DNA of 64,000 nt, from assembly GCA_965237835.1 (NCBI GenBank), contig OZ250160.1:2530146-2594145 (forward strand), given 5' to 3'. Each line of letters starts with the position of its first letter. Within the stretch, counting starts at the first letter, position 1. Below, piece after piece: positions 4,933 through 25,397 of this stretch. The translations under genes and the position numbers were made by a program. This stretch comes from Candidatus Poribacteria bacterium (GTDB taxonomy: Bacteria > Poribacteria > WGA-4E > WGA-3G). Below the pieces are notes generated by a model. That model was not told the origin of the DNA, made no database searches, and was given only the letters and a program-made list of their open reading frames with translations.

Positions 4933-4997
4933 TGGCTGTATAAGTGAGTTTTCTACATAGATTATCCTCTTTTAATTGAAAGTGGATACTGACAACG

Positions 4998-6995
4998 ATG
5001 GAATCGAAACACATGACACAAACACCAAAAACTCTGACCCTTAAAGATATTTTTTGTCCGGGGGGTATCATCTCGGAACATCTTTCGGGTTATGAATATC
5101 GTGAAGAACAACTTCAGATGGCGAACGCGGTTGCTCGTGCATTCGCTGCATCTGAACATCTGATTGTTGAAGCAGGAACAGGGGTTGGCAAAAGTTTCGC
5201 ATATCTTATTCCGGCGATTTCATTTGCGATAAAGTCAGGTCAGACAGTCGTAGTCTCAACGAATACTATCAGTTTGCAGGAACAACTCGTTACCAAAGAT
5301 ATTCCATTTCTGCAACGCGTCCTCCCGCGTGATTTCAAGGCAGTTCTTGGGAAAGGGAGACGTAACTATCTCTCACGGCGACGATTGGAGAGTTTGTTAA
5401 CTTATGAACGTGGGTTATTTGACACGATGGAAGAGGTTGATCAGGTCAAAACGATTGTTGAGTGGGTGGAGATGACAGAGGATGGGAGCCGTGCGGATTT
5501 ACCGATTCAACCGAAGTCTCATATTTGGGATAAAGTGGTATCCGACCGCGATAATTGCCTTGGGCGCAAATGTCCCACCTATGATGCCTGTTTTTACTTC
5601 AGGGCGCGGCACGAGATGCACGAAGCGAACCTACTTATTGTTAACCATCACCTCCTTTTTAGTGACTTGGCGATTCGGCAGATAGACCCATCGGTAGGGA
5701 TTCTCCCTGACTACGACTACTTAGTTATTGATGAGGCACATCATCTGGAAGCCACTGCAACACATCATACCAGCCTTGAAATCAGCAACACCCGAGTCAA
5801 ATGGTTCTTAGATTCACTTCACAACGAGAGAAACGAAAGTGGGGCTGCCGCACGATTCAACTCAACAGATCTTATTGATGAAGTTGATAAAGCACGTGAA
5901 CAAGCAAACCTGTTTTTCAAGACTGTTGGAGATCATTTGGCAAACGCAGATGGATATACCACGACAGAACGAATTGATGAAAATAATATAGCCAAGGTTT
6001 TTGAGGATGGAAATATGTTGGAGACTCCTTTGTCACATATTGAAAAGACTCTTAAGGGACTACGCGAGAATGCCGAAACCGATGACGATGAGCAGGAATT
6101 GACTTCATACTACAACCAGTGCAGGCGGTTGAGAGATGAATTGGACTTAATGGTTCGGCAACCCGATCCGGATTATATCTATTGGGTAGAAACGTCCGCG
6201 TGGGGTCGAACGCCTCGCATCCTTCTAAATGCTACACCTGTAAATGTTAGTCAGATGTTACAAGAAAATCTATTTGATGCGAAAGAAAGTGTTGTGATGA
6301 CAAGTGCAACACTTTCTACGAACCATAGTTTCGAGTACTTTAAAAAACGGATTGGTATTAATGAGTGCCGGGAACTACTTGTGAACTCGCCATTTAACTT
6401 TAAAGAGCAGGTAAAAATACATATTCCGCCTTCTATGCCGGATCCAAATAGTATTGAGTTTGTCCCCGCTGCCATTCGCGAAATCAAACATTATCTCAAA
6501 ATGACACACGGTAAAGCTTTTGTCCTATTTACCAGTTACAAGATGATGGATGAGGTATATGAGGAAGTTGCCCCTTACCTCGCTGAAATAGGCATTGATG
6601 CGTTCAAACAAGGTGGCGAACTTTCACGGACAGATATGCTGCAGGCGTTTCGGGAGGATACAAATTCAGTACTGTTTGGCACTTCCAGTTTCTGGGAAGG
6701 TGTTGATGTACGCGGTGAAGCACTGAGTAATGTGGTTATTACAAAACTTCCGTTCGAAGTGCCGACACATCCAGTCATAGCGGCACGTGTCAAACAGATT
6801 AAAGATCAAGGGGGAAATGAGTTCTTGGAATTTAGTTTGCCTGAAGCCATACTACGTCTCAAACAAGGGTTCGGACGACTTATCCGCACGCAAAAAGATC
6901 AAGGTATTGTGGTAATTCTGGATTCACGTATTAGAACACGCAGTTATGGTAAACTATTTTTAAATTCTCTCCCACCTTGCGATATTGTTGCCTGA
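4998..6995 (+). CDS. dinG: ATP-dependent DNA helicase, DinG/XPD (Rad3-like) family
   Basis: Walker A EAGTGVGKS, DEAH box DEAHHLE, four-Cys FeS cluster segment NCLGRKCPTYDAC, C-terminal helicase domain. Confidence 0.75.
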   Translation: MESKHMTQTPKTLTLKDIFCPGGIISEHLSGYEYREEQLQMANAVARAFAASEHLIVEAGTGVGKSFAYLIPAISFAIKSGQTVVVSTNTISLQEQLVTKDIPFLQRVLPRDFKAVLGKGRRNYLSRRRLESLLTYERGLFDTMEEVDQVKTIVEWVEMTEDGSRADLPIQPKSHIWDKVVSDRDNCLGRKCPTYDACFYFRARHEMHEANLLIVNHHLLFSDLAIRQIDPSVGILPDYDYLVIDEAHHLEATATHHTSLEISNTRVKWFLDSLHNERNESGAAARFNSTDLIDEVDKAREQANLFFKTVGDHLANADGYTTTERIDENNIAKVFEDGNMLETPLSHIEKTLKGLRENAETDDDEQELTSYYNQCRRLRDELDLMVRQPDPDYIYWVETSAWGRTPRILLNATPVNVSQMLQENLFDAKESVVMTSATLSTNHSFEYFKKRIGINECRELLVNSPFNFKEQVKIHIPPSMPDPNSIEFVPAAIREIKHYLKMTHGKAFVLFTSYKMMDEVYEEVAPYLAEIGIDAFKQGGELSRTDMLQAFREDTNSVLFGTSSFWEGVDVRGEALSNVVITKLPFEVPTHPVIAARVKQIKDQGGNEFLEFSLPEAILRLKQGFGRLIRTQKDQGIVVILDSRIRTRSYGKLFLNSLPPCDIVA

Positions 6996-9499: not shown

Positions 9500-10636
9500 T
9501 TACTGCATAGTGAAGATAACGCCTAAAGCTTCATTTGGAGTTTGAATTAATTTTTCGCATGCGTCTGCGGCTTGATCAATTGGCACAATATCTGTAATCA
9601 ACGGCTGCACCTTAATCTTACCGTCCGATATCAATCGTAACGCCAGTTCTAAGTTGCGTTGTGTTGGCCACGGCACAAACACCGGCGGATAATCTGCTCC
9701 GTGTTCATAATCCTCATCGTGGTATCCCGGTCCGGTTCTCGCCGCGCTGATAACATCCACATTCCCAAGTCCCGCCGCAAAACCGTGCGTAATACTTGCC
9801 CCGCCAACAATAACAATCCGTCCCATTTTGTGCGTGTCCGGTGCTGTTTTCAACATTGCGCAGATCTGTTGAAAAGCACTCGTAGCATCCCCACCAAAGG
9901 CGATAATCCCGCAATCCATCCCATATCCTCTGGTGAATTCCTTCGCAATCGGAATCGGGTCTGTTTCAGAGACGTTTATTGCCAAATCAATGCCCGCGTT
10001 TTCAGCAATTCCTATCCGCAAAGGCAGCTGATCTAAACCGATCACATACGCACCAGCAGTTTTGGCAACTTGACTCGCAAATTGTCCGAGGACACCTAAT
10101 CCTGCAATGACAACATTTTCGCCGATACGGATACGTCCGCGTTGCACAGCGTGCAATGCTGTCGCCGCAAGGTGAATGCATGCCGCTTCTTCAGCCTTGA
10201 CATTATCAGGAATCTTAGCGCATAAGTTATGCGGCACACAAGCATACGTAGCGTGCAGAGCATAACCACCGCCCATACCTGCAACCCTATCGCCAATCTC
10301 AAACTCGTCGCAATCTCCTTCTTTACCGATGACAACGCCGGCATTAGTATATCCGAACGAATGCTTCTGTGTTTCGGAACCTGGATTTTCGCGTCTTCGC
10401 TTTATACCACCAAGTTCTGTGCCGGGACTAACCATTGAAGCGTGAACTTCAATCAGTAACTGTCCGTGTTTCGGTGCAGGTGTTTCCTGCTCCTCTGTCA
10501 AGATGCGACCCGCATCATTTCTCATCACAACTTTTCTTGTTTTACTCATAAATGCTTCCTCAGATTCGTCATACAAACTCAATTTTCCTTTTATATTAGG
10601 ATTTACGCAATATCCATTTTTAGAGACGAGACTCAA
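9500..10636 (-). CDS. Zinc-type alcohol dehydrogenase-like / MDR superfamily oxidoreductase
   Basis: GroES-like N-domain followed by a Rossmann motif AGLGVLGQFASQVAKTAGAYVIG. Confidence 0.7.
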   Translation of the reverse strand: MSLVSKNGYCVNPNIKGKLSLYDESEEAFMSKTRKVVMRNDAGRILTEEQETPAPKHGQLLIEVHASMVSPGTELGGIKRRRENPGSETQKHSFGYTNAGVVIGKEGDCDEFEIGDRVAGMGGGYALHATYACVPHNLCAKIPDNVKAEEAACIHLAATALHAVQRGRIRIGENVVIAGLGVLGQFASQVAKTAGAYVIGLDQLPLRIGIAENAGIDLAINVSETDPIPIAKEFTRGYGMDCGIIAFGGDATSAFQQICAMLKTAPDTHKMGRIVIVGGASITHGFAAGLGNVDVISAARTGPGYHDEDYEHGADYPPVFVPWPTQRNLELALRLISDGKIKVQPLITDIVPIDQAADACEKLIQTPNEALGVIFTMQ

Positions 10637-10910
10637 TATTTTTCATACTATGCACCCTTTCCGACCTAATACTGTGTCTCTATATTGTGAAAGGTGCCAT
10701 ATACCACTGTTTGGTCAATTCATGTCGGACTTTTGCGTAAATCCTATTATATAAGGAGTTTCAACTCTGGCTGTATTTTATTCTATTTTCCATTTGTTGT
10801 CAAATCTACTATGGATATTCAGTATCGTTAGGGATATGTGTATTGGTTAAATTATCCATGTATATCGCCGTATAAATCAATATTATCAAAAAAATATACG
10901 ATTACATGTC

Positions 10911-10929
10911 GGAATTGTCCCCAAATCTA
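10911..10929 (+). promoter_or_regulatory. Conserved upstream motif cGGAATTGTCCC-N-AAATCTA (candidate ECF-type promoter or operator)
   Basis: The same motif occurs at 14799-14819, 19611-19629 and 24121-24140, each directly upstream of a cassette gene (sigma or TPR-X). Confidence 0.35.
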
Positions 10930-10940
10930 CGTCATTATCA

Positions 10941-11712
10941 ATGAAGACAGTTAAAAATTTTTCTTGGAAGAGGGAAATCGAGGATGGTGCGCTGCATCGT
11001 CGGTTTTTGGAAACAGGCAGCGAAGCAGCACTGCGTTTGCTTATGCAGAAGTACTATAAGCCAATTTGTAGTCACGTTTTCGCGATCTTGAAAGATCATC
11101 AAGATGCAGATGAAATCACAAATGAAACCTTCCTCAAAGCCTTCAATAAGAGGGAAACGATCAAGTATCCTGATAAACTCGTGAGTTGGTTATATAAGAC
11201 CGCGAAAAATGCGGCGATTGAGCGATTAAGAGCCAGACAACGAGATGTTCACCAGATGCTCGATTTAGTCTCTCTTGATAATTTGGATGCTGAAAGAGAA
11301 GCTGCAGCCGCATCAATATTTGCGGCACAGCAGATTGAGACTGATCAATACTTGTTGACAAGTCTGCTGCGACTTCATAACGGAAAAGGATCGTGAGGTT
11401 GTAGAATACTTATTAGATGACCTAAAGCCGAAGCAGATTGCTGAAGTGATAGACTCCACACCGGAAGCAGTTCAGAAAAGATGGGAACGGATACTCAAGT
11501 GGTTAAGCCCGATTGCTCACCGATTAGACGAACTGCTTAATAACCTTCCGCCTCAAGAACGGAAAATAATGGAACGGTATTTAGATAATCAACCTCTTGA
11601 AGAGATTAGTGAAAAATTAGGTATCTCCCCGACTAATGTTAAAGCATGCGTGAAACGTGTGATGAAGCAGTGGAAGAAAACCACAAGGCAAACGCCACGA
11701 AACGGAGGATAA
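10941..11712 (+). pseudogene. ECF (sigma-70 family) sigma factor, split by an apparent +1 frameshift near 11375-11380
   Basis: Region 2 (ETFLKAF, KLVSWLYKTAKNAAIERLRARQR) lies in frame 0 and ends at 11396. A region-4 HTH (EISEKLGISPTNVKACVKRV) continues in another frame to 11712. Deleting one A in the A-run restores LRLHNGKDREVVEYLLDDL. Confidence 0.6.
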
Positions 11713-11713
11713 T

Positions 11714-12472
11714 ATGCTTCGCGACATCTGGACAAATAAATGGTTTATCGGTGGCTTTGGTTTTCTGATTGTTTTCGCGGTGCTGTGTTACTTCTGGTAC
11801 CAACACGATATTGCGTCATTCCAACAACAGTTATCGGCTACCGGTGATATTGTCTTTCAAGGGGATCTATCTCAAAAGGCACAAAAAACCGTTCAAACAG
11901 ACGTGCCGCTGATAGAATCTCTTGAATCTGTAGAAAATAGGTCTGAATCTGTTAGGGATACGTCGGTTCCCACAGAGAAGACAACAGAAAAAACCGACAC
12001 GTTTGAGATAAACACAAATTTAACTGCGGATGCTCCTATCTCTCCCTTTGGATTTGGTGCGTATCCTGAAGTTCCCGCTGATTATCCGTTTCAGGAACAA
12101 CTTTGGGATAATGCCACGCCAGAGCATGAGTTGTTAGTCCGAGTCGAAGTTAAGTTATGGAAACAAGGCACACAAACTAAAGGCTCTATGTTTGATCCTA
12201 ATAATGGTCTCATTTATCCATCTATTCCTGGTGTCCTTTACGTGCAATGGCGTTACATTGAAGAAGGAGACCCAGATTTAGTAGGGCAACGGTATGCCGG
12301 TAGAGTAAGCGGTGACGGAGATACTGCTAAAAAGTGGCAATCCTTATACCTTACTGACCGTATGTTTGAACGCACAGACGTAACGCATGACACTGAGGCA
12401 TCAGGTATAAAGATTTATGAGTACCCAGACGGGGGTATAGACCCCTACAAATTCCTCGATTTAACGAGGTAA
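11714..12472 (+). CDS. Cassette protein X1: N-terminal signal-anchor TM helix plus a conserved ~150-aa C-terminal domain of unknown function
   Basis: TM segment WFIGGFGFLIVFAVLCYFWY. The C-domain SPFGFGAYPEVPADYPFQE...YEYPDGGIDPYKFLDL is shared with 15254-16051, 19810-20568 and 24258-25397. Confidence 0.7.
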   Translation: MLRDIWTNKWFIGGFGFLIVFAVLCYFWYQHDIASFQQQLSATGDIVFQGDLSQKAQKTVQTDVPLIESLESVENRSESVRDTSVPTEKTTEKTDTFEINTNLTADAPISPFGFGAYPEVPADYPFQEQLWDNATPEHELLVRVEVKLWKQGTQTKGSMFDPNNGLIYPSIPGVLYVQWRYIEEGDPDLVGQRYAGRVSGDGDTAKKWQSLYLTDRMFERTDVTHDTEASGIKIYEYPDGGIDPYKFLDLTR

Positions 12473-12482
12473 GGAAAATAAA

Positions 12483-13256
12483 ATGAAATTGTATCGTGTT
12501 CTTTTACTAATTTTCTGTTCAGGCATCCTCTTCGTTGGTGTCGTTAGTGATATTTCAGCAGCAGGTTTTGATCGTGACGGTCCCTATGAAGCTTCTGTAG
12601 ATGCCCGTCGCTTTGGCGGAAATGAAAACAGATTACATGTCAATTTGTATGCAAGGGCTTCTAGTACTGACCGAGCGAGAAATGGTTACTTGAATATATT
12701 TCTTAAGATAACTAACGGATGGTCAGTAGATCCGGCTGTTACCCCTGTTGATAGTCACGTCTGGCTTTGGGATCACCGTGATTTTCAGTTTGAAGAAAAC
12801 GGAGGCTATGTTTATGCATATGCTTCTGGACAAGACACAGGGAGAGCCTGGTATACCGCCTACACTGACGACACTGCGGAGCCGATGCCTCCTCCTGATC
12901 CTCCACCCGCCACCAACCCCACCAACCCCACCAACCCCGAACCACAATTGGGCATATCCCCCGTAGATCCAGATGACACTCCTTATCCCGGCGAAGCACA
13001 TGAGTACAGACTTGTCACAGATGCACCTTATTACTATGTGTATTGGTATGTGAAGGCACCTTGGGAGACAAGTGAACGCGGATCATATATAGGGAGTGAC
13101 TCAGGTGACGGCACGACAACTGAAGCAACATTCAGTTACACGTTCCCGAGCGGTGCAATGCATACTGGAGATTTTCTGATAACAGCGGTCATTTACCGGT
13201 GGTCAGATATGTCTGAGTATGAGGAGACCTATACTGCGACTGTGTTGTTAGATTAA
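12483..13256 (+). CDS. Cassette protein Y1: secreted protein with a variable N-domain, a Pro-rich linker and a conserved C-terminal domain
   Basis: Signal peptide. Linker PMPPPDPPPATNPTNPTNPEPQLGISPVDPDD. The C-domain (...YYYVYWYVKAPWETSERG...YEETYTATVLLD) is shared with 16066-16836 and 20579-21358. RBS-coupled 10 bp after X1. Confidence 0.7.
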   Translation: MKLYRVLLLIFCSGILFVGVVSDISAAGFDRDGPYEASVDARRFGGNENRLHVNLYARASSTDRARNGYLNIFLKITNGWSVDPAVTPVDSHVWLWDHRDFQFEENGGYVYAYASGQDTGRAWYTAYTDDTAEPMPPPDPPPATNPTNPTNPEPQLGISPVDPDDTPYPGEAHEYRLVTDAPYYYVYWYVKAPWETSERGSYIGSDSGDGTTTEATFSYTFPSGAMHTGDFLITAVIYRWSDMSEYEETYTATVLLD

Positions 13257-13292
13257 AAATTATGTCACATTTATCAGTATGAATAACAATAG

Positions 13293-13330
13293 ACAGGTAA
13301 CTTTGCGGTTACCTGTCTTCTCTTTTTATC
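13293..13330 (+). terminator. Rho-independent terminator after Y1 (copies follow Y2 and Y3)
   Basis: acaggtaac-tttgc-ggttacctgt followed by cttctctttttat. Confidence 0.6.
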
Positions 13331-13338
13331 AGAAAAAG

Positions 13339-13367
13339 TTGACATGTAACATGTATACGCGTATATT
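13339..13367 (+). promoter_or_regulatory. Near-consensus sigma-70 promoter upstream of the WD40 gene
   Basis: TTGACA, 17-nt spacer, TATATT. Identical in the duplicated intergenic segments at 16919 and about 21437. Confidence 0.5.
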
Positions 13368-13544
13368 ATCTGAACCAGGATTTTCAGGATTATCAGATTT
13401 TCAGGATTATAGATACTTCCTCAAATGAACAAGGACTTTGTTGAGAAATATAGATTTGAAGATAATACTAGCAGAAGATAGCCATCCATCTAAAAGCATA
13501 CTAATCCTGATAATCCCATAATCCTGTCCATCCTGGTTCAGACA
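13368..13544. repeat. ~177-bp element bounded by ~40-bp imperfect inverted repeats (tctgaaccaggatt...aatcctggttcaga), MITE-like family 2, forming the 5' leader of the WD40 gene
   Basis: Left arm tctgaaccaggattttcaggattatcag, right arm ctaatcctgataatcccataatcctgtccatcctggttcaga. A complete copy lies at 34728-34852 and partial copies near 31716, 52640 and 55385. Confidence 0.5.
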
Positions 13545-13643
13545 ATCCGAGATTTAGACAGAACCTTTGACATTTAATCCAACACATAGTAGAATAAACA
13601 CAACGTTAATTGGTATTAGAACAGCACATAGGAGAACACACCC

Positions 13644-14753
13644 ATGAGAAACAGATTGTTTTCAATTTTTACAGCACTGTTTGTAGCACTCCCATTTATG
13701 ACCTGCAGTCTCCCATCAGGTTCATTGGAGGATCCGCTGCATGATCCACAGCAAGCCCCGCAGCAAGAGCATTTACCCGAAGGCGCGAAAGGGCGCATCA
13801 AGAAAGACAGGATCAATGATATAGCGTATTCACCAGACGGCACAAAGCTCGCTGTAGCAGGTGGTAGCGGTATTTGGCTCTACGATGCACAGACAGGTCA
13901 TGAACTTGTCCAATTCGCAGGACATACCGGTAAAGTCCACAACGTGGCATTTAGTCCGGATGGAAAGACTATCGTAAGTGCCGGTACCAGTTACGATCGG
14001 ACCATTCGTATATGGGATGTGAACACGGGAAGAAACCTACGAACATTCAAATATCAGGTCTTTGACGTTGCGTTTAGTCCGGATGGAAAGACGATCATAA
14101 GTGGCAGTCATGACAAAAACCTCTACTTATTGGATGCGGACACAGGTAAACTCCTACGCACCCTCTCTGGGCATACGGATTTTGTCTGGTACGTGGCGTT
14201 TAGTCCGGACGGAAAAACTATTGCAAGTCGCAGTCAAGACCAGACCATTTGTCTGTGGGATGCGGACATAGGTAAACTCCTACAAACAATCACATGGCAT
14301 TCGCATCTGCCCAAGCATCCTCTCAAGCATCCTCTCAATACCGTAATTTTTAGTCCTGATGGAAAGATGATCGCAAGTGTTGGTGATGACCAGACTATTT
14401 GGCTGTGGGATGTGAACACGGGAAAACAACTACGAACAATCGCAAGAAACACGTCTCCTCATCGTAAGAACTTGGCATTTAGTCCGGATGGAAGCATGAT
14501 TGCATGTAACAATTGGAAGGATATTGATCTGTGGGATGTGAACACGGGAAAACTCCTACGAACACTCACAGGGTATCGGGAGAATAACCCACCGCGTCGG
14601 GACCGGTTCAGCGGACATATTTTAGGATCCCCCTGGGTCTTTATGGTGGTGTTCAGTCCGGATGGAAAGACTATCGCAGGTGCCAGTGGGCATGGCGTCC
14701 ATCTGTGGGATGTGAACACGGGATACCTCCAAAAACTCATCAGTGGTTTTTGA
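13644..14753 (+). CDS. WD40 repeat beta-propeller protein with N-terminal secretion/lipoprotein-like signal (WD40-1)
   Basis: Repeated [21 protein letters not shown] WD40 units. Signal [17 protein letters not shown]. Confidence 0.85.
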   Translation: MRNRLFSIFTALFVALPFMTCSLPSGSLEDPLHDPQQAPQQEHLPEGAKGRIKKDRINDIAYSPDGTKLAVAGGSGIWLYDAQTGHELVQFAGHTGKVHNVAFSPDGKTIVSAGTSYDRTIRIWDVNTGRNLRTFKYQVFDVAFSPDGKTIISGSHDKNLYLLDADTGKLLRTLSGHTDFVWYVAFSPDGKTIASRSQDQTICLWDADIGKLLQTITWHSHLPKHPLKHPLNTVIFSPDGKMIASVGDDQTIWLWDVNTGKQLRTIARNTSPHRKNLAFSPDGSMIACNNWKDIDLWDVNTGKLLRTLTGYRENNPPRRDRFSGHILGSPWVFMVVFSPDGKTIAGASGHGVHLWDVNTGYLQKLISGF

Positions 14754-14935
14754 TACGACCGCGCTGCGGTCTGTTGTAAAATGCCAATTTTCTGTTAGCG
14801 GAATTGTCCCTTAAATCTATCTATAAGAGAAAACTCTCATAGAATAATAGCATCTGTTTGCAAGCATTCCTATCTGGTTTTGTGAATTAAATTCTAAACG
14901 TCCCTGTTAATTTCTACTTGGTAAGGAGAAAAATC

Positions 14936-16051
14936 ATGAAATTTGTCAACTTCTGTCTGTTTACTACTTTTGTTCTTACAACAGTAATGCAAATCGGATG
15001 TTTGTCCGGTGGTGCGATGGGTACTGCGGAAAAATTAAGTGAGACGAAAGACTATCGCGGTGCATTAGAAGTCTATCAAAATGTTGTAGATACCAAACCC
15101 GGTACTGCTGACGCGCGCGCAGCACAACTCGCAATAGGTGAACTCTACATTGAGCATATACATTAACCCGAACAAGGGATTGAAACTTATGAAGCGGTCA
15201 TTGCTGAAGCACCCACAAGCGATGAAGCTGCAGAGGCACACTATCGTCTCGGGATGCACGCCTATCGCCAAAAAGACTATGACGCAGCGCAAACCCAATT
15301 TGGTACTATTGTTAACCATTTTTCGCATCTGGAATTGAGTCACAACGCACAACTGATGTCGGCAAAAAGTTATGAGGATGGGCAAAAATTTGAACAAGCT
15401 GTAGAAGTTTATGATAATTTTGCGAACCGCAACCCACAGAGTAAACGCGCTGCACAAGCCCTCGCCAATAAAGCACGAATACAACGCAAATTCCTTAAAG
15501 ATGATGATGAAGCGATACGTACCCTGCAATTATTAGTCATAAAATACGGCAAAATTAAGAGCGCAGAATCATACGTTAAAGAAGCTAAAAAAGTATTAAT
15601 TGAATTCAATGTCTCTCCTTTTGGATTTGGTGCATATCCTGAAGTTCCCGCCGATTATCCATTTCAGGAGCGACTTTGGGATAATGCCACGCCAGAGAAT
15701 GAGTTGTTAATCCGAGTTCAGATTAAGTTATGGAATCAAGGAACACGAACTAAAGGTGCAGCGTTTAGTAGTAATGGTCTCGTTTATCCCACAATTTCTG
15801 GTGTCCTTTACGTAGAATGGCGTTACATTGAAGAAGGTGACCCAGATTTAGTAGGGCGACGGTATGCCGGTACAGTAAGCGGTGACGGAGAGACTGCTAA
15901 AAAGTGGCGATCTTTATACCTTACTGACCGTATGTTTGAGCGCACAGACGTAACGCATGACACTAAGGTATCAGGTATAAAGATTTATGAGTATCCAGAT
16001 GGAGGAATAGACCCCTACAAATTCCTCGATTTACCGAGGCAAGGAGAATAA
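14936..16051 (+). pseudogene. Cassette protein X2: TPR lipoprotein carrying the conserved X C-domain, interrupted by an in-frame TAA at 15164-15166
   Basis: The intact paralog at 24258-25397 reads CAA (Q) where this copy reads TAA. Lipobox MQIGC. TPR-like helices. The downstream ORF 15254-16051 carries the X C-domain. Confidence 0.6.
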
Positions 16052-16065
16052 AATGAAACTGTCCA

Positions 16066-16836
16066 GTGTTTTTTTACTTTTCATGCGTTGTCCTCTTCGT
16101 TGTTGCAGTTGGTGATATTTCAGCAGCTGTTGGACAGGACGGTCCCTATACTGCTGAAGCATACGGCTATCGCGTGGGCGGAATTAATAATGACAGATTA
16201 AATGTCAGTTTGTCTGGTAGGGCTAGTAGTACTGTGTTTGGAAGTGACGGTTATTATAAAATAGAGTTATTTAAAGAACTACCCAGCGGATGGAGTATAA
16301 TTGCTGAACAGGACGAGGTTGATACACATGGTGGTCAAATTGATGGCCACTTCTATGTAAACCTAGACTTAGATCTTCCTAGGGAAGAATACGCATGCTT
16401 TATTGACGTTGATGTTAGTGGTAGAGCGACAAATGGAAGGTACTGTTTTGCGGATGCTGATGAATATGTGGGACCGATGCCTCCACCTCCCCCTAATCCT
16501 CAACTCATCATCGACCCCGAACCACAAGTGGGCATATCCTCCGTAGATCCAGATGACACTCCTTATCCGGGGAACACATACGAGTTCAGACTTATCACAG
16601 ATGTCCATTATTATTGGGTGGACTGGTATGTGAAAGCACCCTGGGAGACAAGTGAAAGGGGAACACATATAGAAGGTCAATTAGGAGATGGCGAGACAAC
16701 TGAATCTACATTCAGTTACACGTTCCCGAGCGGTGCAATGCATACTGGAGATTTTCTGATAACAGCGGTCATTTACCGGTGGTCAGATATGTCTGAGTAT
16801 GAGGAGACCTATACTGCGACTGTGTTGTTAGATTAA
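16066..16836 (+). CDS. Cassette protein Y2 (secreted; variable N-domain, conserved C-domain); the native ATG at 16053 is out of frame through a T7 homopolymer, so the ORF opens at a GTG
   Basis: The ATG at 16053 reads into a TGA. A T7 run at 16068-16074 sits in the signal-peptide codons. The C-terminal 100 aa are almost identical to Y1 and Y3. Confidence 0.55.
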   Translation: MFFYFSCVVLFVVAVGDISAAVGQDGPYTAEAYGYRVGGINNDRLNVSLSGRASSTVFGSDGYYKIELFKELPSGWSIIAEQDEVDTHGGQIDGHFYVNLDLDLPREEYACFIDVDVSGRATNGRYCFADADEYVGPMPPPPPNPQLIIDPEPQVGISSVDPDDTPYPGNTYEFRLITDVHYYWVDWYVKAPWETSERGTHIEGQLGDGETTESTFSYTFPSGAMHTGDFLITAVIYRWSDMSEYEETYTATVLLD

Positions 16837-17223
16837 AAATTATGTCACATTTATCAGTATGAATAACAATAGACAGGTAACTTTGCGGTTACCTGTCTTC
16901 TCTTTTTATCAGAAAAAGTTGACATGTAACATGTATACGCGTATATTATCTGAACCAGGATTTTCAGGATTATCAGATTTTCAGGATTATAGATACTTCC
17001 TCAAATGAACAAGGACTTTGTTGAGAAATATAGATTTGAAGATAATACTAGCAGAAGATAGCCATCCATCTAAAAGCATACTAATCCTGATAATCCCATA
17101 ATCCTGTCCATCCTGGTTCAGACAATCCGAGATTTAGACAGAACCTTTGACATTTAATCCAACACATAGTAGAATAAACACAACGTTAATTGGTATTAGA
17201 ACAGCACATAGGAGAACACACCC

Positions 17224-18333
17224 ATGAGAAACAGATTGTTTTCAATTTTTACAGCACTGTTTGTAGCACTCCCATTTATGACCTGCAGTCTCCCATCAGG
17301 TTCATTGGAGGATCCGCTGCATGATCCACAGCAAGCCCCGCAGCAAGAGCATTTACCCGAAGGCGCGAAAGGGCGCATCAAGAAAGACAGGATCAATGAT
17401 ATAGCGTATTCACCAGACGGCACGAAGCTCGCGGTGGCAGGTGGTAGCGGTATTTGGCTCTATGATGCACAGACAGGTCATGAACTTGTCCAATTCGCAG
17501 GACATACCGGTAAAGTCCACAACGTGGCATTTAGTCCGGATGGAAAGACTATCGTAAGTGCCGGTACCAGTTACGATCGGACCATTCGTATATGGGATGT
17601 GAACACGGGAAGAAACCTACGAACATTCAAGTATCAGGTCTTTGACGTTGCGTTTAGTCCGGATGGAAAGACGATCATAAGTGGCAGTCATGACAAAAAC
17701 CTCTACTTATTGGATGCGGACACAGGTAAACTCCTACGCACCCTCTCTGGGCATACGGATTTTGTCTGGTACGTGGCGTTTAGTCCGGACGGAAAAACTA
17801 TCGCAAGTCGCAGTCAGGACAAGACCATTTGTCTGTGGGATGCGGACATAGGTAAACTCCTACAAACAATCACATGGCATTCGCATCTGCCCAAGCATCC
17901 TCACAAGCATCCTCTCAATACCGTAATTTTTAGTCCTGATGGAAAGATGATCGCAAGTGTTGGTGATGACCAGACTATTTGGCTGTGGGATGTGAACACG
18001 GGAAAACAACTACGAACAATCGCAAGAAACACGTCTCCTTATCGTAAGAACTTGGCATTTAGTCCGGATGGAAGCATGATTGCATGTAACAATTGGAAGG
18101 ATATTGATCTGTGGGATGTGAACACGGGAAAACAACTACGAACACTCACAGGGTATCGGGAGAATAACCCATCGCATCGGGACCGGTTCAGCGGACATAT
18201 TTTAGGAAACCCCAGCATCTTTACGGTGGTGTTTAGTCCGGATGGAAAGACTATCGCAGGTGCCAATAGGCGTGGCGTCCATCTGTGGGATGTGAACACG
18301 GGGTACCTCCGAAAACTCATCAGTGGTTTTTGA
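17224..18333 (+). CDS. WD40 repeat lipoprotein-like protein (WD40-2), near-identical to WD40-1
   Basis: 369 aa with only a few substitutions relative to 13644-14753. The upstream 387 bp is identical to 13257-13643. Confidence 0.85.
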
Positions 18334-18351
18334 TACGACCGCGCTGCGGTA

Positions 18352-18579
18352 TTAGGTATTTAGAACAGCACAAAAGGAGAACACACCCATGAAAAATAGC
18401 ACGAAACCAACTTTGTTGACATTTCCAACGCAAACCCTCCTCTTTGAGCCATTCCCAGATCGTTGAATCAGAAGATGAATACCCGTTTTCTCTGTAAACG
18501 CAGTTTGCAATCGTCCCAGTGTCCATACCTCAAATGGATAACCGAGACTACGCGGTTTTTGCAACGCTAAATCTATCAT
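18352..18579 (-). pseudogene. Remnant of an IS630-family transposase N-terminal HTH region
   Basis: [24 protein letters not shown]...RSGNGSKRR resembles the winged-HTH region of IS630/Tc1 transposases. Only ~75 aa remain. Confidence 0.35.
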
Positions 18580-19640
18580 ACCATATTAACTTGATTAGAA
18601 GTCTTTTGATATAGCACACGGTTGCGAGGCACGGGGACCTCGCGCTACAGATCGGGTTAATTTGGTATCAGTTGACCGCGCACCTCCGTTGAATGAATAC
18701 GCGGTTTACCGCTTTTCGGTTTATCAGCAGGTTTTCCTTTGATACCTTTTTCGTTCACGCAGCAGATATACTTGATTTGAAACCCGCTTGTTTTGCTGCT
18801 TGGGCAGCTGTCAGGGTGTTGTCATCAATCATGCTGACAATCAACCTGGCTCTCTGCACAGTCCGATAACATCTCCTCTATTTATAGCCCTCCGATCACT
18901 GTGTATTTATACCATTCTAAGTGATTATGTTGTGTTAGTTCGTAGGTTCGGTAGAGCGGTAACGAAACCATAAGTGTCAATTTAGTAGTCTTCCAACCCC
19001 GGTAGGTGCGGTTTCCTAACCGCACTATAACCGTCACCAAGTCTAACCGTAGATAAAGGGATACCACTCTCCATTGATAGAATACGAGGCTTCACTAGGT
19101 ATCTCATCACCATTAGCGAGTCCGGAAATGGGTTGGGTTAGTAAACAGACAGCTGCTAGTGCAAAAAGTATGTAGGTGCAAAAGGGGGCATGATATGAAA
19201 AAAGTTGGAAATGTTGAATGTCCACGGTTGAACGTAGGTGTGTAATTATCGGATATTTGCTATCTGGAATACGCAGGGCTGCATTTTTTGACACTGGGAA
19301 GTAATATGGGGGGGCTGGTTGTTTTGAAAAAGTCGTTGCGAGGCGTTTTTGACAGGAATTCGTTATATCGTAATGTTGGTCTGTTCAGATGTGCGATACG
19401 CGCATATGTGCAGCAGTCGCACACGTGCGCAGCACTCGGTGTTCATCTTGCCATATTATTAAAAGGTGTCAGGGATATCGTGCCCTAATATTTTATCCAT
19501 CTTTCAACGAACATTCTAACAGTATCGTTAGGGATATGTGTATTGGTTAAATTATCCATGTATATCGCCGTATAAATCAATATTATCAAAAAAATATACG
19601 ATTACATGTCGGAATTGTCCCCAAATCTACGTCATTATCA

Positions 19641-19808
19641 ATGAAGACAGTTAAAAATTTTTATAGGGAACGGTATTTAGACAATCAACCTCTCAAAGAG
19701 ATTAGTGAAAAATTGGGTATTTCTCTGACTAATGTTGAAGTATGCGTGAAACGTGTGATAAAGCAGTGGAAGAAATCCACAAGGCAAACGCCACGAAACG
19801 GAGGATAA
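19641..19808 (+). pseudogene. In-frame internal-deletion remnant of the ECF sigma gene (55-aa ORF retaining only the region-4 HTH)
   Basis: The first 7 codons (MKTVKNF) are fused to YRERYLDNQPLKEISEKLGISLTNVEVCVKRV. The upstream 140 bp is identical to 10800-10940. Confidence 0.5.
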
Positions 19809-19809
19809 T

Positions 19810-20568
19810 ATGCTTCGCGACATTTGGACAAATAAATGGTTTATCGGTGGCTTCGGTTTTCTGATTGTTTTCTCGGTGCTGTGTTACTTCTGGTACCAAC
19901 ACGATATAGCGTCATTCCAACAACAGTTATCGGCTACCGGTGATATTGTCTTTCAAGGGGATCTATCTCAAAAGGCACAAAAAACCGTTCAAACAGACGT
20001 GCCGCTGATAGAATCTCTTGAATCTGTAGAAAATAGGTCTGAATCTGTTAGGGATACGTCGGTTCCCACAGAGAAGACAACAGAAAAAACCGACACGTTT
20101 GAGATAAACACAAAATTAACTGCGGATGCTCCTACTTCTCCCTTTGGATTTGGTGCATATCCTGAAGTTCCCGCTGATTATCCGTTTCAGGAACGACTTT
20201 GGGATAACGCCACGCCAGAGCATGAGTTGTTAGTCCGAGTCGAAGTTAAGTTATGGAAACAAGGCACACAAACTAAAGGCTCTATGTTTGATACTAATAA
20301 TGGTCTCATTTATCCGACTATTCCTGGTGTCCTTTACGTGAAATGGCGTTACATTGAAGAAGGAGACCCAGATTTAGTAGGGCGAAGGTATGCCGGTAGA
20401 GTAAGCGGTGACGGAGATACTGCTAAAAAGTGGCAATCCTTATACCTTACTGACCGTATGTTTGAACGCACAGACGTAACGCATGACACTGAGGCATCAG
20501 GTATAAAGATTTATGAGTACCCAGACGGGGGTATAGACCCCTACAAATTCCTCGATTTAACGAGGTAA
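19810..20568 (+). CDS. Cassette protein X3 (TM anchor plus conserved X C-domain), near-identical to X1
   Basis: 252 aa with a handful of substitutions relative to 11714-12472. Confidence 0.7.
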   Translation: MLRDIWTNKWFIGGFGFLIVFSVLCYFWYQHDIASFQQQLSATGDIVFQGDLSQKAQKTVQTDVPLIESLESVENRSESVRDTSVPTEKTTEKTDTFEINTKLTADAPTSPFGFGAYPEVPADYPFQERLWDNATPEHELLVRVEVKLWKQGTQTKGSMFDTNNGLIYPTIPGVLYVKWRYIEEGDPDLVGRRYAGRVSGDGDTAKKWQSLYLTDRMFERTDVTHDTEASGIKIYEYPDGGIDPYKFLDLTR

Positions 20569-20578
20569 GGAAAATAAA

Positions 20579-21358
20579 ATGAAATTGTATCGTGTTCTTT
20601 TACTTTTTTTCTTTTCATGCGCTATCCTCTTCGTTGGTGCAGTTAGTGATATTTCAGCAGATGCTCAAGTTAACGGTCCCTATACTGCTGAAGCATACGT
20701 TTATCGTGTTAACACAGCTAATGTCATATTGACCGCTAAAGCTAGTAGTACGCCGCGGGCAAAAAACGGTAAGTATAAATTAGTTGCAAATAAAGATTCA
20801 GATTTAAACAGACAGGTCGAAACTTGGGATCCACTTGAAGAACAAACCCACCTGGATACACATGGTGCTCCAATTGATGGTGAATTCTCCGAAGAGCTAA
20901 AAAGAAATTATCCTTCGACAGAATACGGATACCAGGCTAAATCACTTGTTGATGGACAATTGACAGATGGAGCTTTTCGTGCTGCTTTTGCTGAAGATAA
21001 AGTGGGCGAGATACCTATTCTTGAACCCACCCCCGTCCCTCAACCACAATTGGGCATATCCCCCGTAGATCCAGATGACACTCCTTATCCCGGCGAAGCA
21101 CATGAGTACAGACTTGTCACAGAGGCACCTTATTACTATGTGAATTGGTATGTGAAGGCACCTTGGGAGACAAGTGAACGCGGATCATATATAGGGAGTG
21201 ACTCAGGTGACGGCACGACAACTGAATCTACATTCAGTTACACGTTCCCGAGCGGTGCAATGCATACTGGAGATTTTCTGATAACAGCGGTCATTTACCG
21301 GTGGTCAGATATGTCTGAGTATGAGGAGACTTATACTGCGACTGTGTCATTAGATTAA
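20579..21358 (+). CDS. Cassette protein Y3 (secreted; divergent N-domain, conserved C-domain)
   Basis: Signal peptide. N-domain only distantly similar to Y1 and Y2 (DGPYTAEAY.YRV...ASST). C-terminal ~105 aa conserved. Confidence 0.7.
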   Translation: MKLYRVLLLFFFSCAILFVGAVSDISADAQVNGPYTAEAYVYRVNTANVILTAKASSTPRAKNGKYKLVANKDSDLNRQVETWDPLEEQTHLDTHGAPIDGEFSEELKRNYPSTEYGYQAKSLVDGQLTDGAFRAAFAEDKVGEIPILEPTPVPQPQLGISPVDPDDTPYPGEAHEYRLVTEAPYYYVNWYVKAPWETSERGSYIGSDSGDGTTTESTFSYTFPSGAMHTGDFLITAVIYRWSDMSEYEETYTATVSLD

Positions 21359-21768
21359 AATTACGTCGCATTTATCATTGTGAATAACAACAGACAGGTA
21401 TCCTTGAGGTTACCTGTCTTCTCTTTTTATCAGAAAAAGTTGACATGTAACATGTATACGCGTATATTATCTGAACCAGGATTCTCAAGATTACCAGATT
21501 TTCAGGATTATAGATACTTCCTCAAATGAACAAGGACTTTGTCGAGAAATATAGATTTGAAGATAATACTAACTAGCAGAAGATAGCCATCCATCTAAAA
21601 GCATACTAATCCTGTCCATCCTGGTTCAGACAATCCGAGATTCAGACAGAACCTTTGACATTTAATCCAACATATAGTAGAATAAACGCAACATTAAAAT
21701 GATTTATATTTAGCCCGCGTCTTTCTATCCAGATAGGTATTTAGCACAGCACACAGGAGAACACACCC

Positions 21769-22917
21769 ATGAGAAACAAATTGTTTTCAATTTTGACAGC
21801 ACTGTTTGTAGCACTCCCATTTATGACCTGCAGTCTTCCGCCAGGTTCACTGGAGGAACCGCTACATGATCCACAGCAGGAACCGCAGCAGAAACCGCAG
21901 CAAGAGCATTTACCCAATGGCGTGAAAGTGCCCCCCGGGAGAGTATGGGTTATGGATGTAAAATTTTCACCCGATGGCACATGTCTCGCGGTGGCGGGTG
22001 GCATCGGCATTTTGCTTTACGATACACAGACTTATGACAAACCGGACCTACTTAAAGGGCATACGGGTTATATATGGTGCATAGCGTTTCGTCCGGATGG
22101 AAAGGTGCTCGCAAGTGCAGGTCAGGACCGGACTGTCCGTTTGTGGGATGTGAACACGAGACAACAAATCAGAACATTTGGAATAAACTTGTATCCTACG
22201 TCAAACATAACATTTAGTCCGGATGGCAAGACACTCGCAAGCGCAACTGGAGGTAATAATACGAAGGATGTTATGAACGTCTATCTATGGGATGCAGACA
22301 CAGGTAAACGCCTACGCACACTCTCTGGGCATACGAATATAGTCAACGATGTGTCGTTTCGTCCGGATGGAAATATGCTCGCAAGTGCGTGTGACGACCA
22401 AACCGTCCGTCTGTGGGATGTGGAGACGGGACAACATATCAGAACACTATCTGGGCATACGAAGATGGTCGAGAGCGTTGCATTTAGTCCGGATGGAAAT
22501 ATGCTCGTAAGTGGAGGTGGGTATCATAATGCTGTCGCTCTGTGGAATGCGAACACGGGACAACAAATCAGAGCACTCACTATCAATGCACACTTGGAAC
22601 AACAAATCAATGTCCACATGGAAAAATATAGCAGACACATAGGCGCAAAAGGGGGGAGCAAGATTAGTGGAGAAGATGTGGCGTTCAGTCCGGATGGAAA
22701 CACTATCGCAAGTACCGGTCCTTCTTCCATCCATCTGTGGGATATGGGCTCGGGACAACACCACAGAATACTCCACAACGGAAAGTATCCTGATATAGCA
22801 ACAGATGTAGCGTTCAGTCCGGATGGAAACACTATCGCGTGTGTAGGTTGGTATGAAGCACATGTGTGGGATGTGGAGACGGGAAAACTCATCCGAATAC
22901 TCATGGGCAAACATTGA
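21769..22917 (+). CDS. WD40 repeat lipoprotein-like protein (WD40-3, divergent paralog)
   Basis: Same signal and leader as the other WD40 genes. WD40 units FSPDG....LWDV. Confidence 0.85.
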   Translation: MRNKLFSILTALFVALPFMTCSLPPGSLEEPLHDPQQEPQQKPQQEHLPNGVKVPPGRVWVMDVKFSPDGTCLAVAGGIGILLYDTQTYDKPDLLKGHTGYIWCIAFRPDGKVLASAGQDRTVRLWDVNTRQQIRTFGINLYPTSNITFSPDGKTLASATGGNNTKDVMNVYLWDADTGKRLRTLSGHTNIVNDVSFRPDGNMLASACDDQTVRLWDVETGQHIRTLSGHTKMVESVAFSPDGNMLVSGGGYHNAVALWNANTGQQIRALTINAHLEQQINVHMEKYSRHIGAKGGSKISGEDVAFSPDGNTIASTGPSSIHLWDMGSGQHHRILHNGKYPDIATDVAFSPDGNTIACVGWYEAHVWDVETGKLIRILMGKH

Positions 22918-22971
22918 TACTACCGTTCTGTGGTATTAGGTATTTAGAACAGCACACAGGAGAACACACCC

Positions 22972-24075
22972 ATGAGAAACAGATTGTTTTCAATTTTCAC
23001 AGCACTGTTTATAAAACTAACATTTCTGAGCTGCAGTCTCCCACCCGGTTCATTGGAGGATCCGCTGCATGATCCACAGCAAGCCCCGCAGCAAGAGCAT
23101 TTACCCGAAGGCGCGAAAGGGCGCATCAAGAAAGACAGGATCCATGATATAGCGTATTCACCAGATGGCACGAAGCTAGCGGTGGCAGGTGGTAGCGGTA
23201 TTTGGCTCTACGATGCACAGACAGGTCATGAACTTGTCCAATTCGCAGGACATACCTATACAGTCCACAACGTGGCATTTCGTCCAGACGGAAAGACTAT
23301 CGTAAGTGCCGCTATCGGTTACGATCAGACCATTCGTATATGGGATGTGAACACGGGAAGAAACCTACGAACATTCAGGTATGTGGCCTTTGACGTCGCG
23401 TTTAGCCCGGATGGAAAGATGATCGTAAGTGGCGGTCATGACAAAAACCTCTATTTACTGGATGCGGACACAGGTAAACTCGTACGCACCCTCTCTGGGC
23501 ATACGGATTTTGTCTGGAGCGTGGCGTTTAGTCCGGATGGAAAAACTATCGCAAGTCGCAGTCAGGACAAGACCATTCGTCTGTGGGATGCGAACACAGG
23601 AAAACTCCTGCGAACACTCACAATGGATACGCATCTGCCCAAGTATTTTCTCAATATCGTAATTTTTAGTCCTGATGGAAAAGTGATCGCAAGTGTTGGT
23701 AATGACCGGACCATTTGTCTGTGGGATGCTAACACGGGAAAACGCCTACGAACAATCGCAAGAAATACGACTCCTTTTCATAAAAACTTGGCATTTAGTC
23801 CGGATGGAAGCATGATCGCATGCAACAATTGGCTCGATATTGACCTATGGGATGTGAACAACGGAAAACTCCTACGAACACTCACAGGGTATAGGGAGAA
23901 TAACCCATCGCGTCGGGAGTGGAGGAGAGGACATATTGGACTTATAGGACCCCCCGGAATCTTTACGGTGGTGTTCAGTCCGGATGGAAAGACTATCGCA
24001 GGTGCCAGTGTGCATGGCGTCCATCTGTGGGATGTGAACACGGGGTACCTCCGAAAACTCATCAGTGGTTTTTGA
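22972..24075 (+). CDS. WD40 repeat lipoprotein-like protein (WD40-4)
   Basis: Closest to WD40-1 and WD40-2. The downstream 165 bp is identical to 14754-14917. Confidence 0.85.
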   Translation: MRNRLFSIFTALFIKLTFLSCSLPPGSLEDPLHDPQQAPQQEHLPEGAKGRIKKDRIHDIAYSPDGTKLAVAGGSGIWLYDAQTGHELVQFAGHTYTVHNVAFRPDGKTIVSAAIGYDQTIRIWDVNTGRNLRTFRYVAFDVAFSPDGKMIVSGGHDKNLYLLDADTGKLVRTLSGHTDFVWSVAFSPDGKTIASRSQDKTIRLWDANTGKLLRTLTMDTHLPKYFLNIVIFSPDGKVIASVGNDRTICLWDANTGKRLRTIARNTTPFHKNLAFSPDGSMIACNNWLDIDLWDVNNGKLLRTLTGYRENNPSRREWRRGHIGLIGPPGIFTVVFSPDGKTIAGASVHGVHLWDVNTGYLRKLISGF

Positions 24076-24257
24076 TACGACCGCGCTGCGGTCTGTTGTA
24101 AAATGCCAATTTTCTGTTAGCGGAATTGTCCCTTAAATCTATCTATAAGAGAAAACTCTCATAGAATAATAGCATCTGTTTGCAAGCATTCCTATCTGGT
24201 TTTGTGAATTAAATTCTAAACGTCCCTGTTAATTTCTACTTGGTAAGGAGAAAAATC

Positions 24258-25397
24258 ATGAAATTTGTCAACTTCTGTCTGTTTACTACTTTTGTTCTTA
24301 TAACAGTAATGCAAATCGGATGTTTGTCCGGTGGTGCGATGGGTACTGCGGAAAAATTAAGTGAGACGAAAGACTATCGCGGTGCATTAGAAGTCTATCA
24401 AAATGTTGTAGATACCAAACCCGGTACTGCTGACGCGCGCGCAGCACAACTCGCAATAGGTGAACTCTACATTGAGCATATACATCAACCCGAACAAGGG
24501 ATTGAAACTTATGAAGCGGTCATTGCTGAAGCACCCACAAGCGATGAAGCTGCAGAGGCACACTATCGTCTCGGGATGCACGCCTATCGCCAAAAAGACT
24601 ATGACGCAGCGCAAACCCAATTTGGTACTATTGTTAACCAATTTTCGCATCTGGAATTGAGTCACAACGCACAACTGATGTCGGCAAAAAGTTATGAGGA
24701 CGGGCAAAAATTTGAACAAGCTGTAGAAGTTTATGATAATTTTGCGAACCGCAACCCACAGAGTAAACGCGCTGCACAAGCCCTCGCCAATAAAGCGCGA
24801 ATACAACGCAAATTCCTTAAAGATGATGATGAAGCGATACGTACCCTGCAATCATTAGTCATAAAATACGGCAAAATTAAGAGCGCAGAATCATACGTTA
24901 AAGAAGCTAAAAAAGTATTAATTGAATTCAATGTCTCTCCTTTTGGATTTGGTGCATATCCTGAAGTTCCCGCCGATTATCCATTTCAGGAGCGACTTTG
25001 GGATAATGCCACGCCAGAGCATGAGTTGTTAGTCCGAGTCGAAGTTAAGTTATGGAATCAAGGAACACGAACTAAAGGTGCAGCGTTTAGTAGTAATGGT
25101 CTCGTTTATCCCACAATTTCTGGTGTCCTTTACGTAGAATGGCGTTACATTGAAGAAGGTGACCCAGATTTAGTAGGGCAACGGTATGCGGGACGTGTAA
25201 TGGGTGACGGAGATACTGCTAAAAAGTGGCGATCTTTATACCTTACTGACCGTATGTTTGAGCGCACAGACGTAACGCATGACACTGAGGTATCAGGTAT
25301 AAAGATTTATGAGTATCCAGATGGAGGAATAGACCCCTACAAATTCCTCGATTTACCGAGGTTTGATGTTGAATTGAGAGAAGGAGGCAAAAACTAA
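24258..25397 (+). CDS. Cassette protein X4: intact TPR lipoprotein fused to the conserved X C-domain
   Basis: RBS AAGGAG 7 nt upstream of the ATG at 24258. Lipobox IGC. TPR-like repeats. C-domain SPFGFGAYPEVPADYPFQER... Confidence 0.75.
   Translation: MKFVNFCLFTTFVLITVMQIGCLSGGAMGTAEKLSETKDYRGALEVYQNVVDTKPGTADARAAQLAIGELYIEHIHQPEQGIETYEAVIAEAPTSDEAAEAHYRLGMHAYRQKDYDAAQTQFGTIVNQFSHLELSHNAQLMSAKSYEDGQKFEQAVEVYDNFANRNPQSKRAAQALANKARIQRKFLKDDDEAIRTLQSLVIKYGKIKSAESYVKEAKKVLIEFNVSPFGFGAYPEVPADYPFQERLWDNATPEHELLVRVEVKLWNQGTRTKGAAFSSNGLVYPTISGVLYVEWRYIEEGDPDLVGQRYAGRVMGDGDTAKKWRSLYLTDRMFERTDVTHDTEVSGIKIYEYPDGGIDPYKFLDLPRFDVELREGGKN

Follow-up and report, generated by a model that had tools for sequence, protein, structure and literature searches.

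A short motif occurs four times in the 64,000 nucleotides (nt) of Candidatus Poribacteria DNA analysed here (contig OZ250160.1, positions 2,530,146 to 2,594,145; hereafter the window), upstream of a gene for an extracytoplasmic function (ECF)-type sigma factor and of the genes for a TPR-X lipoprotein. The locus raises the question of whether such a motif marks a regulon of the sigma factor, as an earlier note on this DNA had proposed, or something smaller. Our best reading is that the site preceding the sigma gene (type A) represents an ordinary kind of element, the autoregulated ECF promoter, in an unstudied sigma family, accompanied by a lineage-specific weak second site (type B) upstream of the TPR-X gene. 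With moderate confidence, and judging from sequence comparison, we take type A to be the autoregulatory promoter of the sigma factor that it precedes, serving an operon of the sigma gene and two downstream genes, X and Y.

The repeated motif and its independent contexts

Exact matches to GGAATTGTCCC were found at 10911, 14800, 19611 and 24122, all on the plus strand and each followed after 1-2 nt by AAATCTA, against a chance expectation of about 0.03 exact matches in 64 kb counted on both strands (4^11 arithmetic). Allowing up to two mismatches gave 31 matches, compared with 17 ± 4 in shuffled sequences. The four occurrences described earlier, with their positions, were all confirmed as exact matches, but they are not independent of one another. 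Between 10.8 and 25.4 kb the window is made up of segmental duplications of recent origin, in which 10820-10967 is 99% identical to 19520-19667 (repeat family D17) and 14620-14919 is 97% identical to 23942-24241 (repeat family D10). Because segmental duplication carried each site along with its gene, the four matches represent only two independent sites, types A and B, and the copies had been over-counted. The same applies to the two copies said to lie upstream of the sigma gene: the first does so, whereas the second faces a 55-codon deletion remnant, the pair being one promoter duplicated with its gene. Repeats that look like a regulon within tandemly duplicated cassettes should be collapsed to independent events first.

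Type A, catGTCGGAATTgtccccAAATcTACGTcattatcaATG, ends 11 nt before the sigma ATG (10941 and 19641) and extends over 10908-10932 in copy 1 and 19608-19632 in copy 2, and type B, ttAGCGGAATTgtcccttAAATCTAtcta, ends 116 nt before the TPR-X ATG (14936 and 24258). The two types share 11 + 7 bases. Their local alignment scored 38, compared with 21.4 ± 3.9 for shuffled sequences, and none of 500 shuffles reached that score; beyond the core nothing significant is shared, the flank alignments being at shuffle level.

Type A as a candidate autoregulatory promoter

Thirteen sigma-upstream regions were collected from Candidatus Poribacteria, one of them (L025) being the only useful locus from a metagenome scan with the sigma alignment, and 12 distinct sites were aligned. 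The sigma homologues downstream of these sites are 49-100% identical, and at 13 of 13 loci the type A site lies directly upstream of the sigma gene or operon, on the same strand. The consensus of the sigma-upstream sites is TTtTaT-GTCGGAATT-nTcCcc-AAAT-yTACGT-N8-ATRAAGGCA, with flanks that diverge, and the layout GTCGGAATT-N6-AAAT-N1-TACGT is shared across the 13 sites except that N1 becomes N0 in L027. The parts of the site in the window, and its copies, are the following.

10902 to 10907, plus strand: T-rich stretch, TTACAT here and TTtTaT in the consensus; moderately conserved columns 5' of GTCGGAATT in the 12 aligned sites
10908 to 10916, plus strand: -35-like block GTCGGAATT of type A copy 1; identical in 10 of the 12 distinct sites aligned
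10917 to 10922, plus strand: type A spacer gTCCcc, in which TCC alone tends to be kept
10923 to 10932, plus strand: AAAT-c-TACGT, with the conserved AAAT and the -10-like CGT; from the alignment of sigma-upstream sites
10941 to 10949, plus strand: start region of the ATRAAGGCA type, ATGAAGACA here; sigma start codon and predicted transcription start
19608 to 19649, plus strand: type A copy 2, candidate promoter and start region; carried by segmental duplication at 99% identity (family D17)
10724 to 10746, plus strand: degenerate copy A', GTCGGACTTttgcgtAAATcc, without CGT; same intergenic region, about 185 nt upstream of type A

The block GTCGGAATT carries a single substitution each in L016 and L030, and L024 matches the window, while the spacer reads gtcccc, cttcct, atcctc, atcccc, ctcccc, ctccaa, ctccat or catgcc. 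AAAT is invariant; CGT is present in 12 of the 13 sites, with CGC in L025, and L027 has one base fewer between AAAT and TACGT. The boundaries drawn for the motif in the earlier note were slightly off: its "TGTCCC" part is mostly variable spacer, and two conserved elements, a 5' GTC and a 3' CGT, had been missed. The block is better conserved than the flanking intergenic DNA (1.49 bits per column compared with 0.71 for the preceding 40 nt). In leave-one-out scoring with the type A matrix, the site ahead of the sigma gene was the top match in 12 of 12 fetched sigma loci (18.8-43.4 bits) and the only strong match per locus; apart from type B in L016, runner-up matches in those loci reached at most 8.8 bits. 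The maximum was 6.5 bits in four loci that have no sigma gene. Even a family member that is 49% identical and sits in a different genomic setting (L031) has the same promoter boxes. The conservation, geometry and uniqueness of the type A sites are plain from these comparisons, from which we infer the binding protein and the transcription start. The degenerate copy A' aligned to type A with a score of 32, reached by 9 of 500 shuffles, and is more decayed in L016; its similarity to type B is not significant, 38 of 500 shuffles reaching the score.

GGAA in the -35 element and CGT in the -10 element are typical ECF features, and consensus sequences include TGAAAC-N16-CGTA for sigma-W, GGAAC-N16-CGTT for EcfG and GGAAT-N18-GTT for SigR. 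In the model that we favour, type A would be the promoter of the sigma-X-Y operon and would be read by the operon's own ECF-type sigma, resulting in positive autoregulation. It would be laid out as the T-rich stretch, a -35 element GTCGGAA(TT), a 15-nt spacer holding the conserved TCC and AAAT, and a -10 element CGT(C/G)A, with transcription predicted to start about 7 nt past the -10 element at the conserved ATRAAGGCA. Published ECF motif searches used a 7-bp -35 element, a 5-bp -10 element and a spacer of 15-18 bp (PMC7776599), and ECF sigmas usually autoregulate (PMC7826278). GTCGGAA-N15-CGTCA and TGTCGGA-N16 lie inside the 15-18 nt range and GGAATTG-N12-CGTCA lies outside it, the outcome depending on the register chosen. 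The spacing had been described as shorter than that of canonical ECF promoters, and an operator had been suggested instead. With GTCGGAA as the -35 element the distance to CGTCA is 15 nt, inside the range, and in that register the specific reason for preferring an operator would fall away. The idea of autoregulation, also raised at that time, gains from the comparison, in which the site is unique and conserved upstream of the sigma gene in Poribacteria loci, and autoregulation of sigma-X-Y now appears well supported on comparative grounds.

The distance from CGT to ATRAAGGCA is 8 nt in 11 sites and 9 nt in L031, and it is 8 nt even in L027 despite the indel; such a fixed distance fits a promoter. 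In the clade of the window (the window, L016, L023, L024, L025 and L036), an ATG without a Shine-Dalgarno sequence lies in frame 8 nt past CGT and is the sole in-frame start that keeps the conserved sigma N-terminus. In L015, L019, L021, L027, L029, L030 and L031, the sigma gene begins 45-70 nt further on, behind a Shine-Dalgarno sequence, and the triplet at the conserved start region is ATA or TTA in four of these loci; it is ATG in L031 and, out of frame, in L015 and L019. The ATRAAGGCA region is retained even where this triplet is ATA or TTA and cannot be read as a start codon. We reasoned that in the window clade the predicted transcription start would be the sigma ATG itself, giving a leaderless mRNA, and that in the other clades the same position would open a leader of 45-70 nt carrying the Shine-Dalgarno sequence. 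The window clade resembles known leaderless mRNAs in the position of its ATG and the missing Shine-Dalgarno sequence, and differs from them in that the leaderless start is a predicted one and that in other clades the same site would give rise to a leader containing a Shine-Dalgarno sequence. In L015 (about 2790-2840, minus strand) and L019 (about 1430-1480, minus strand) the conserved ATG opens an upstream reading frame of 14 codons, MKARIIFLSERENG and MQARVIFFSERENG, and the stop of this frame overlaps the sigma start codon (ATGGATGA; read by eye).

Type A shares with autoregulated ECF (group 4) promoters its place directly upstream of a sigma operon, a putative two-part structure, a GGAA-containing -35 element and a CGT -10 element, as well as being kept among orthologues while the flanks drift and having a spacer of 15-16 nt in the GTCGGAA/TGTCGGA register. 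By contrast, its -35 block is 9 nt in length and begins with GTC, its spacer is 3-4 nt short if GGAA is aligned to GGAAC, TCC and AAAT are conserved in that spacer, and the predicted start coincides with the start codon; its dependence on the sigma is putative. The phylum Poribacteria has neither cultured members nor transcription data, and the consensus given here offers a testable promoter sequence for one of its ECF-type sigma families, widespread and so far uncharacterised.

A sigma-70 reading of the motif was rejected. The sigma-70 scan gave no plus-strand match at the motif, either at 10900-10940 or at 14790-14830, and the conserved upstream TTGTTGTCAAATC is in the window better read as the minus-strand TTGACA of a divergent gene than as a sigma-70 box for the motif. 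A conserved TTTGTTGTCAAATC also lies upstream of the sigma promoter, at 10775-10803 (minus strand) in the window and in L025, L027, L029 and L030. On the minus strand of the window it corresponds to TTGACA-N17-TAAAAT ahead of the divergent ADH_zinc_N gene; L029 and L030 have another divergent gene, and their minus-strand -10 is poor.

Type B and the weighing of alternatives

The second site is present in two copies.

14797 to 14819, plus strand: first copy of type B, the partial site preceding TPR-X, AGCGGAATTgtcccttAAATCTA; 18.3 bits with the other-genome matrix
24119 to 24141, plus strand: type B copy 2, a 97%-identical duplicate (family D10)

Type B comes after a hairpin at 14757-14771, itself 3' of a WD40 gene, and heads a TPR-X-Y' unit whose TPR-X gene has an AAGGAG ribosome-binding site. 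With a matrix built from other genomes it scored 18.3 bits, the best match other than type A among 127,940 window positions, the next scoring 10.7 and type A 41.4. Compared with type A, AG replaces GT at the 5' edge, the spacer is one base longer and CGT is missing. We consider type B to be a lineage-specific partial version that keeps the GGAATTnTCC core and AAAT, whereas the 5' GT and the CGT were either lost or never present in it; it would confer at most weak sigma dependence, or it may be a relic.

The proposed regulon signature is not supported, since in the 289 kb scanned type B is the only additional site, reaches 18 bits, is present in the window and L016 only, is degenerate in L036 and is absent from L032-L035; type B thus appears specific to the window/L016 lineage. 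Among 185,579 species genomes (one each), an exact-motif scan gave 20 matches, in line with chance (estimate about 35). Three of the 20 are in Candidatus Poribacteria (L015, L016 and L019), and in L015 and L019 the exact type A motif precedes sigma orthologues within flanks unrelated to those of the window. The motif is accordingly not frequent genome-wide, a high frequency without positional bias being the outcome that the earlier note had named as speaking against its proposal; the exact scan gave one exact copy per genome, always at the sigma locus. In 289 kb of Poribacteria DNA no further sites were found beyond the sigma sites, type B and the decayed A', and a wider regulon is not supported by the DNA scanned.

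Several points weigh against reading type A as an autoregulatory promoter with type B as its weak second version. The closest relative with an intact sigma, L016, has two substitutions in the type A site (GGAGTT and AAATTTA), and the constraint on type A is therefore not absolute. Aligning the GGAA core to GGAAC, the canonical element, leaves a spacer that falls 3-4 nt short; the supposed spacer also contains conserved AAAT and TCC, and a plain two-box promoter needs neither. Both sigma copies in the window are broken, and the transcription start is a prediction from sequence. As to type B, it lacks CGT, and in L036, where TPR-X is 83% identical and the gene order is the same, the site is degenerate and reads AGAAGTATACCttAAATATA. 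The flanks there are near-identical to those of the window, AATTTTCTGTTAGC upstream and CTCATAG(A/T)ATAATAG(C/T)ATCTGTTTGCAAGCATTCC downstream, the identity being 16/16 upstream, 36/38 downstream and 7/11 in the core, and the conserved downstream flank holds a -10-like box, TAGAAT/TATAAT, about 30 nt past type B. No B-like site lies upstream of four TPR-X orthologues that are 55-74% identical (L032-L035), two of which sit 33-47 nt behind the preceding WD40 gene. In L021 the region upstream of TPR-X has been destroyed by the insertion of a small mobile element.

These observations raise the possibility, to which we give nearly even odds, that type B is functionless, its likeness to type A being a copying by-product (a micro-conversion or an old duplication of the promoter region) in a recombining array, with TPR-X transcribed from the downstream TAGAAT. 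In favour of this reading are the spacer base G that type B shares with type A, its lack of CGT, an array that arises through recombination between X-domain sequences of 85-90% identity, and the decayed A', which shows that copies of this kind arise and decay; the window and L036 agree more closely in the flanks than in the motif, and four other TPR-X orthologues have no such site. However, type B keeps its own 'tt', and a single conversion tract is insufficient to account for it, and it stands about 10 bits above any background site. Furthermore, four of the five substitutions between type B and L036 fall on type A consensus positions (GGAA, AAT, TCC and the C/T after AAAT), which fits a functional gain in the window lineage or a loss in L036 and argues against a purely accidental likeness.

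For type A, it is unlikely that the block is an operator, bound by a separate DNA-binding regulator over or just downstream of another promoter, rather than the sigma's own promoter. An operator could explain the AAAT and TCC conserved within the "spacer" and the loose inverted repeat GGAATTnTCC, and in L027, L029 and L030 a TTGTCA followed after 15-17 nt by TAATTT or TTATTT just upstream would place the block at about +1 to +30 (read by eye). However, in the window clade some 100 nt separate the TTGTCA from the block and its minus strand reads as the TTGACA-N17-TAAAAT promoter of the divergent gene, and the sigma-70 scan found no plus-strand promoter at the motif. The block is also asymmetric, beginning with GTC and ending with CGT, the gene tables show no regulator gene common to the loci, and the constant spacing from the conserved start region is what a promoter would show. 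That the block acts as RNA, in the form of a leader element of the sigma mRNA, is very improbable, for although conservation reaches into ATRAAGGCA and the 14-codon upstream frame overlaps the sigma start in L015 and L019 (by eye), folding was no better than that of shuffled sequences (z-scores +2.2, +0.4, +0.5 and -0.7), the sites have no Rfam match, and the one start codon that the window clade can use comes 8 nt past the end of the block.

The sigma family and the cassette

The autoregulatory promoter reading assigns type A to a sigma gene that is defective in both of its copies in the window, and the circuit here is therefore probably inactive, except if the sites are read by a paralogous sigma from this family. 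The sigma genes and the genes of the cassette are as follows.

10941 to 11712, plus strand: first copy of the ECF-type sigma gene, with a frameshift from a single extra base near 11377; from alignment to the intact L016 and L024 genes
19641 to 19808, plus strand: sigma remnant copy 2 of 55 codons; in-frame deletion with its junction in family D15, 19667 joining the equivalent of 11571
11714 to 13256, plus strand: genes X and Y, immediately downstream of sigma; from gene spacing and translations
14936 to 16051, plus strand: first copy of the TPR-X lipoprotein gene, carrying TAA in frame at 15164-15166; copy 2 has CAA there
24258 to 25397, plus strand: TPR-X lipoprotein gene copy 2, intact, 379 amino acids (aa); from its translation
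13567 to 13595, plus strand: sigma-70-type promoter of a WD40 gene, TTGACA-N17-TAGAAT; from the promoter scan, outside the motif system, repeated copies forming family D16

Copy 1 encodes Sigma70_r2 in 10941-11396 and Sigma70_r4_2 in 11446-11712. A homopolymer sequencing error was rejected as the source of its frameshift, the extra base lying outside any homopolymer run; it may still be an assembly error. In the copy 2 remnant, 7 N-terminal residues are fused to part of the C-terminal helix-turn-helix (HTH) behind an intact type A. The insertion in sigma copy 1 and the TAA in TPR-X copy 1 give the impression of an array gathering pseudogenes, or are assembly errors.

An intact sigma of 259 aa is encoded in L016 (OZ244616.1, 3961-4740, minus strand), and the family comprises at least 156 homologues of 240-266 aa, all source-named matches being from Poribacteria. 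The protein consists of sigma2, a long helix and a canonical sigma4, followed by a further HTH at the C-terminus. With sigma2 and sigma4 and without regions 1.1 and 3, the family falls into ECF group 4 (Sigma70_r2, E 3e-12). The middle HTH gave a full-length Sigma70_r4_2 match of 21 bits, below the 25.7 cut-off; full-length SigW, SigH and SigE align to profile positions 11-181 (E down to 1e-19), which identifies the middle HTH as the canonical sigma4. An extra HTH of the sigma4/LuxR type (Pfam r4_2, E 5e-8, with NarL- and SigF-like alignments) makes up the last ~70 residues; it is predicted with a pLDDT (predicted local distance difference test) above 90 and belongs to the most conserved stretches of the family. 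The best fold match was the dCas12f-associated sigma-E (PDB 9n9q, chain C; E 3.8e-7), aligned over its full length.

Extensions at this end of an ECF sigma are known, and the ~70 further residues of the Poribacteria sigma, folding as an HTH, are comparable in this respect with the C-terminal extensions of the ECF41/42 type; the HTH-like C-terminal domain of the dCas12f-associated sigma-E (9n9q_C), which there docks a protein partner, is a second parallel. By contrast with both, the Poribacteria extension is LuxR-like and matches Sigma70_r4_2. The idea that the extra domain has a Cas12f-type partner was considered and rejected, the gene tables of the 13 Poribacteria loci showing no Cas12f-like gene, which also sets the family apart from the dCas12f-associated sigma-E. 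Among extension types, the main text of the ECF classification paper names SnoaL-like, TPR, Cys-rich, DUF1835 and transmembrane ones, HTH being unnamed, and our literature search on Poribacteria ECF sigmas found nothing relevant. The promoter has more conserved elements (the T-rich stretch, GTCGGAATT, TCC, AAAT and CGT) than a two-box ECF promoter, and for this reason one might speculate that the extra domain is linked to the extra elements. It might contact a third DNA element, either the spacer AAAT or the upstream T-rich stretch, or it might dock a partner protein; we regard this as improbable, and three-point recognition is not known to have been described for ECF sigmas. The sigma architecture, with its additional HTH, is unusual and, together with a leaderless start if there is one, deserves most attention, the rest being expected behaviour of an ECF sigma.

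The comparison ties the sigma to a small extracytoplasmic cassette of X, Y and, in one lineage, the TPR-X lipoprotein. X (252 aa, with an N-terminal membrane anchor) begins right past the sigma stop and Y (257 aa, with a signal peptide) follows after a 10-nt gap, and sigma-X-Y is probably one operon driven by type A. A terminator-like hairpin at 13291-13318 lies 3' of Y, and a WD40 gene is next; as had been supposed earlier, the WD40 genes use a sigma-70-type promoter and not the motif. The C-terminal ~150 residues are common to X and TPR-X at 85-90% DNA identity (families D1 and D12; shared stretches 12039-12495, 15612-16065, 20135-20591 and 24934-25387), and unequal recombination between these stretches explains the repeated X-Y-WD40 units. 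The close relative L016 (OZ244616.1) has a single undamaged cassette of intact sigma, X, Y, WD40, type B and TPR-X.

Sub-threshold Rfam matches to Chlorobi-RRM at 13257-13329 and 16837-16909 (27 bits compared with a gathering score of 45) overlap the hairpin and are probably not meaningful. Finally, L016 carries a short mobile element that has no coding sequence and is bounded by the terminal inverted repeats CAGGGTTATTTAGTTTT, inserted between the divergent promoter and type A (about 4830-5010, minus-strand reading), and this element also disrupts the 5' end of TPR-X in L021 (about 10177-10545).

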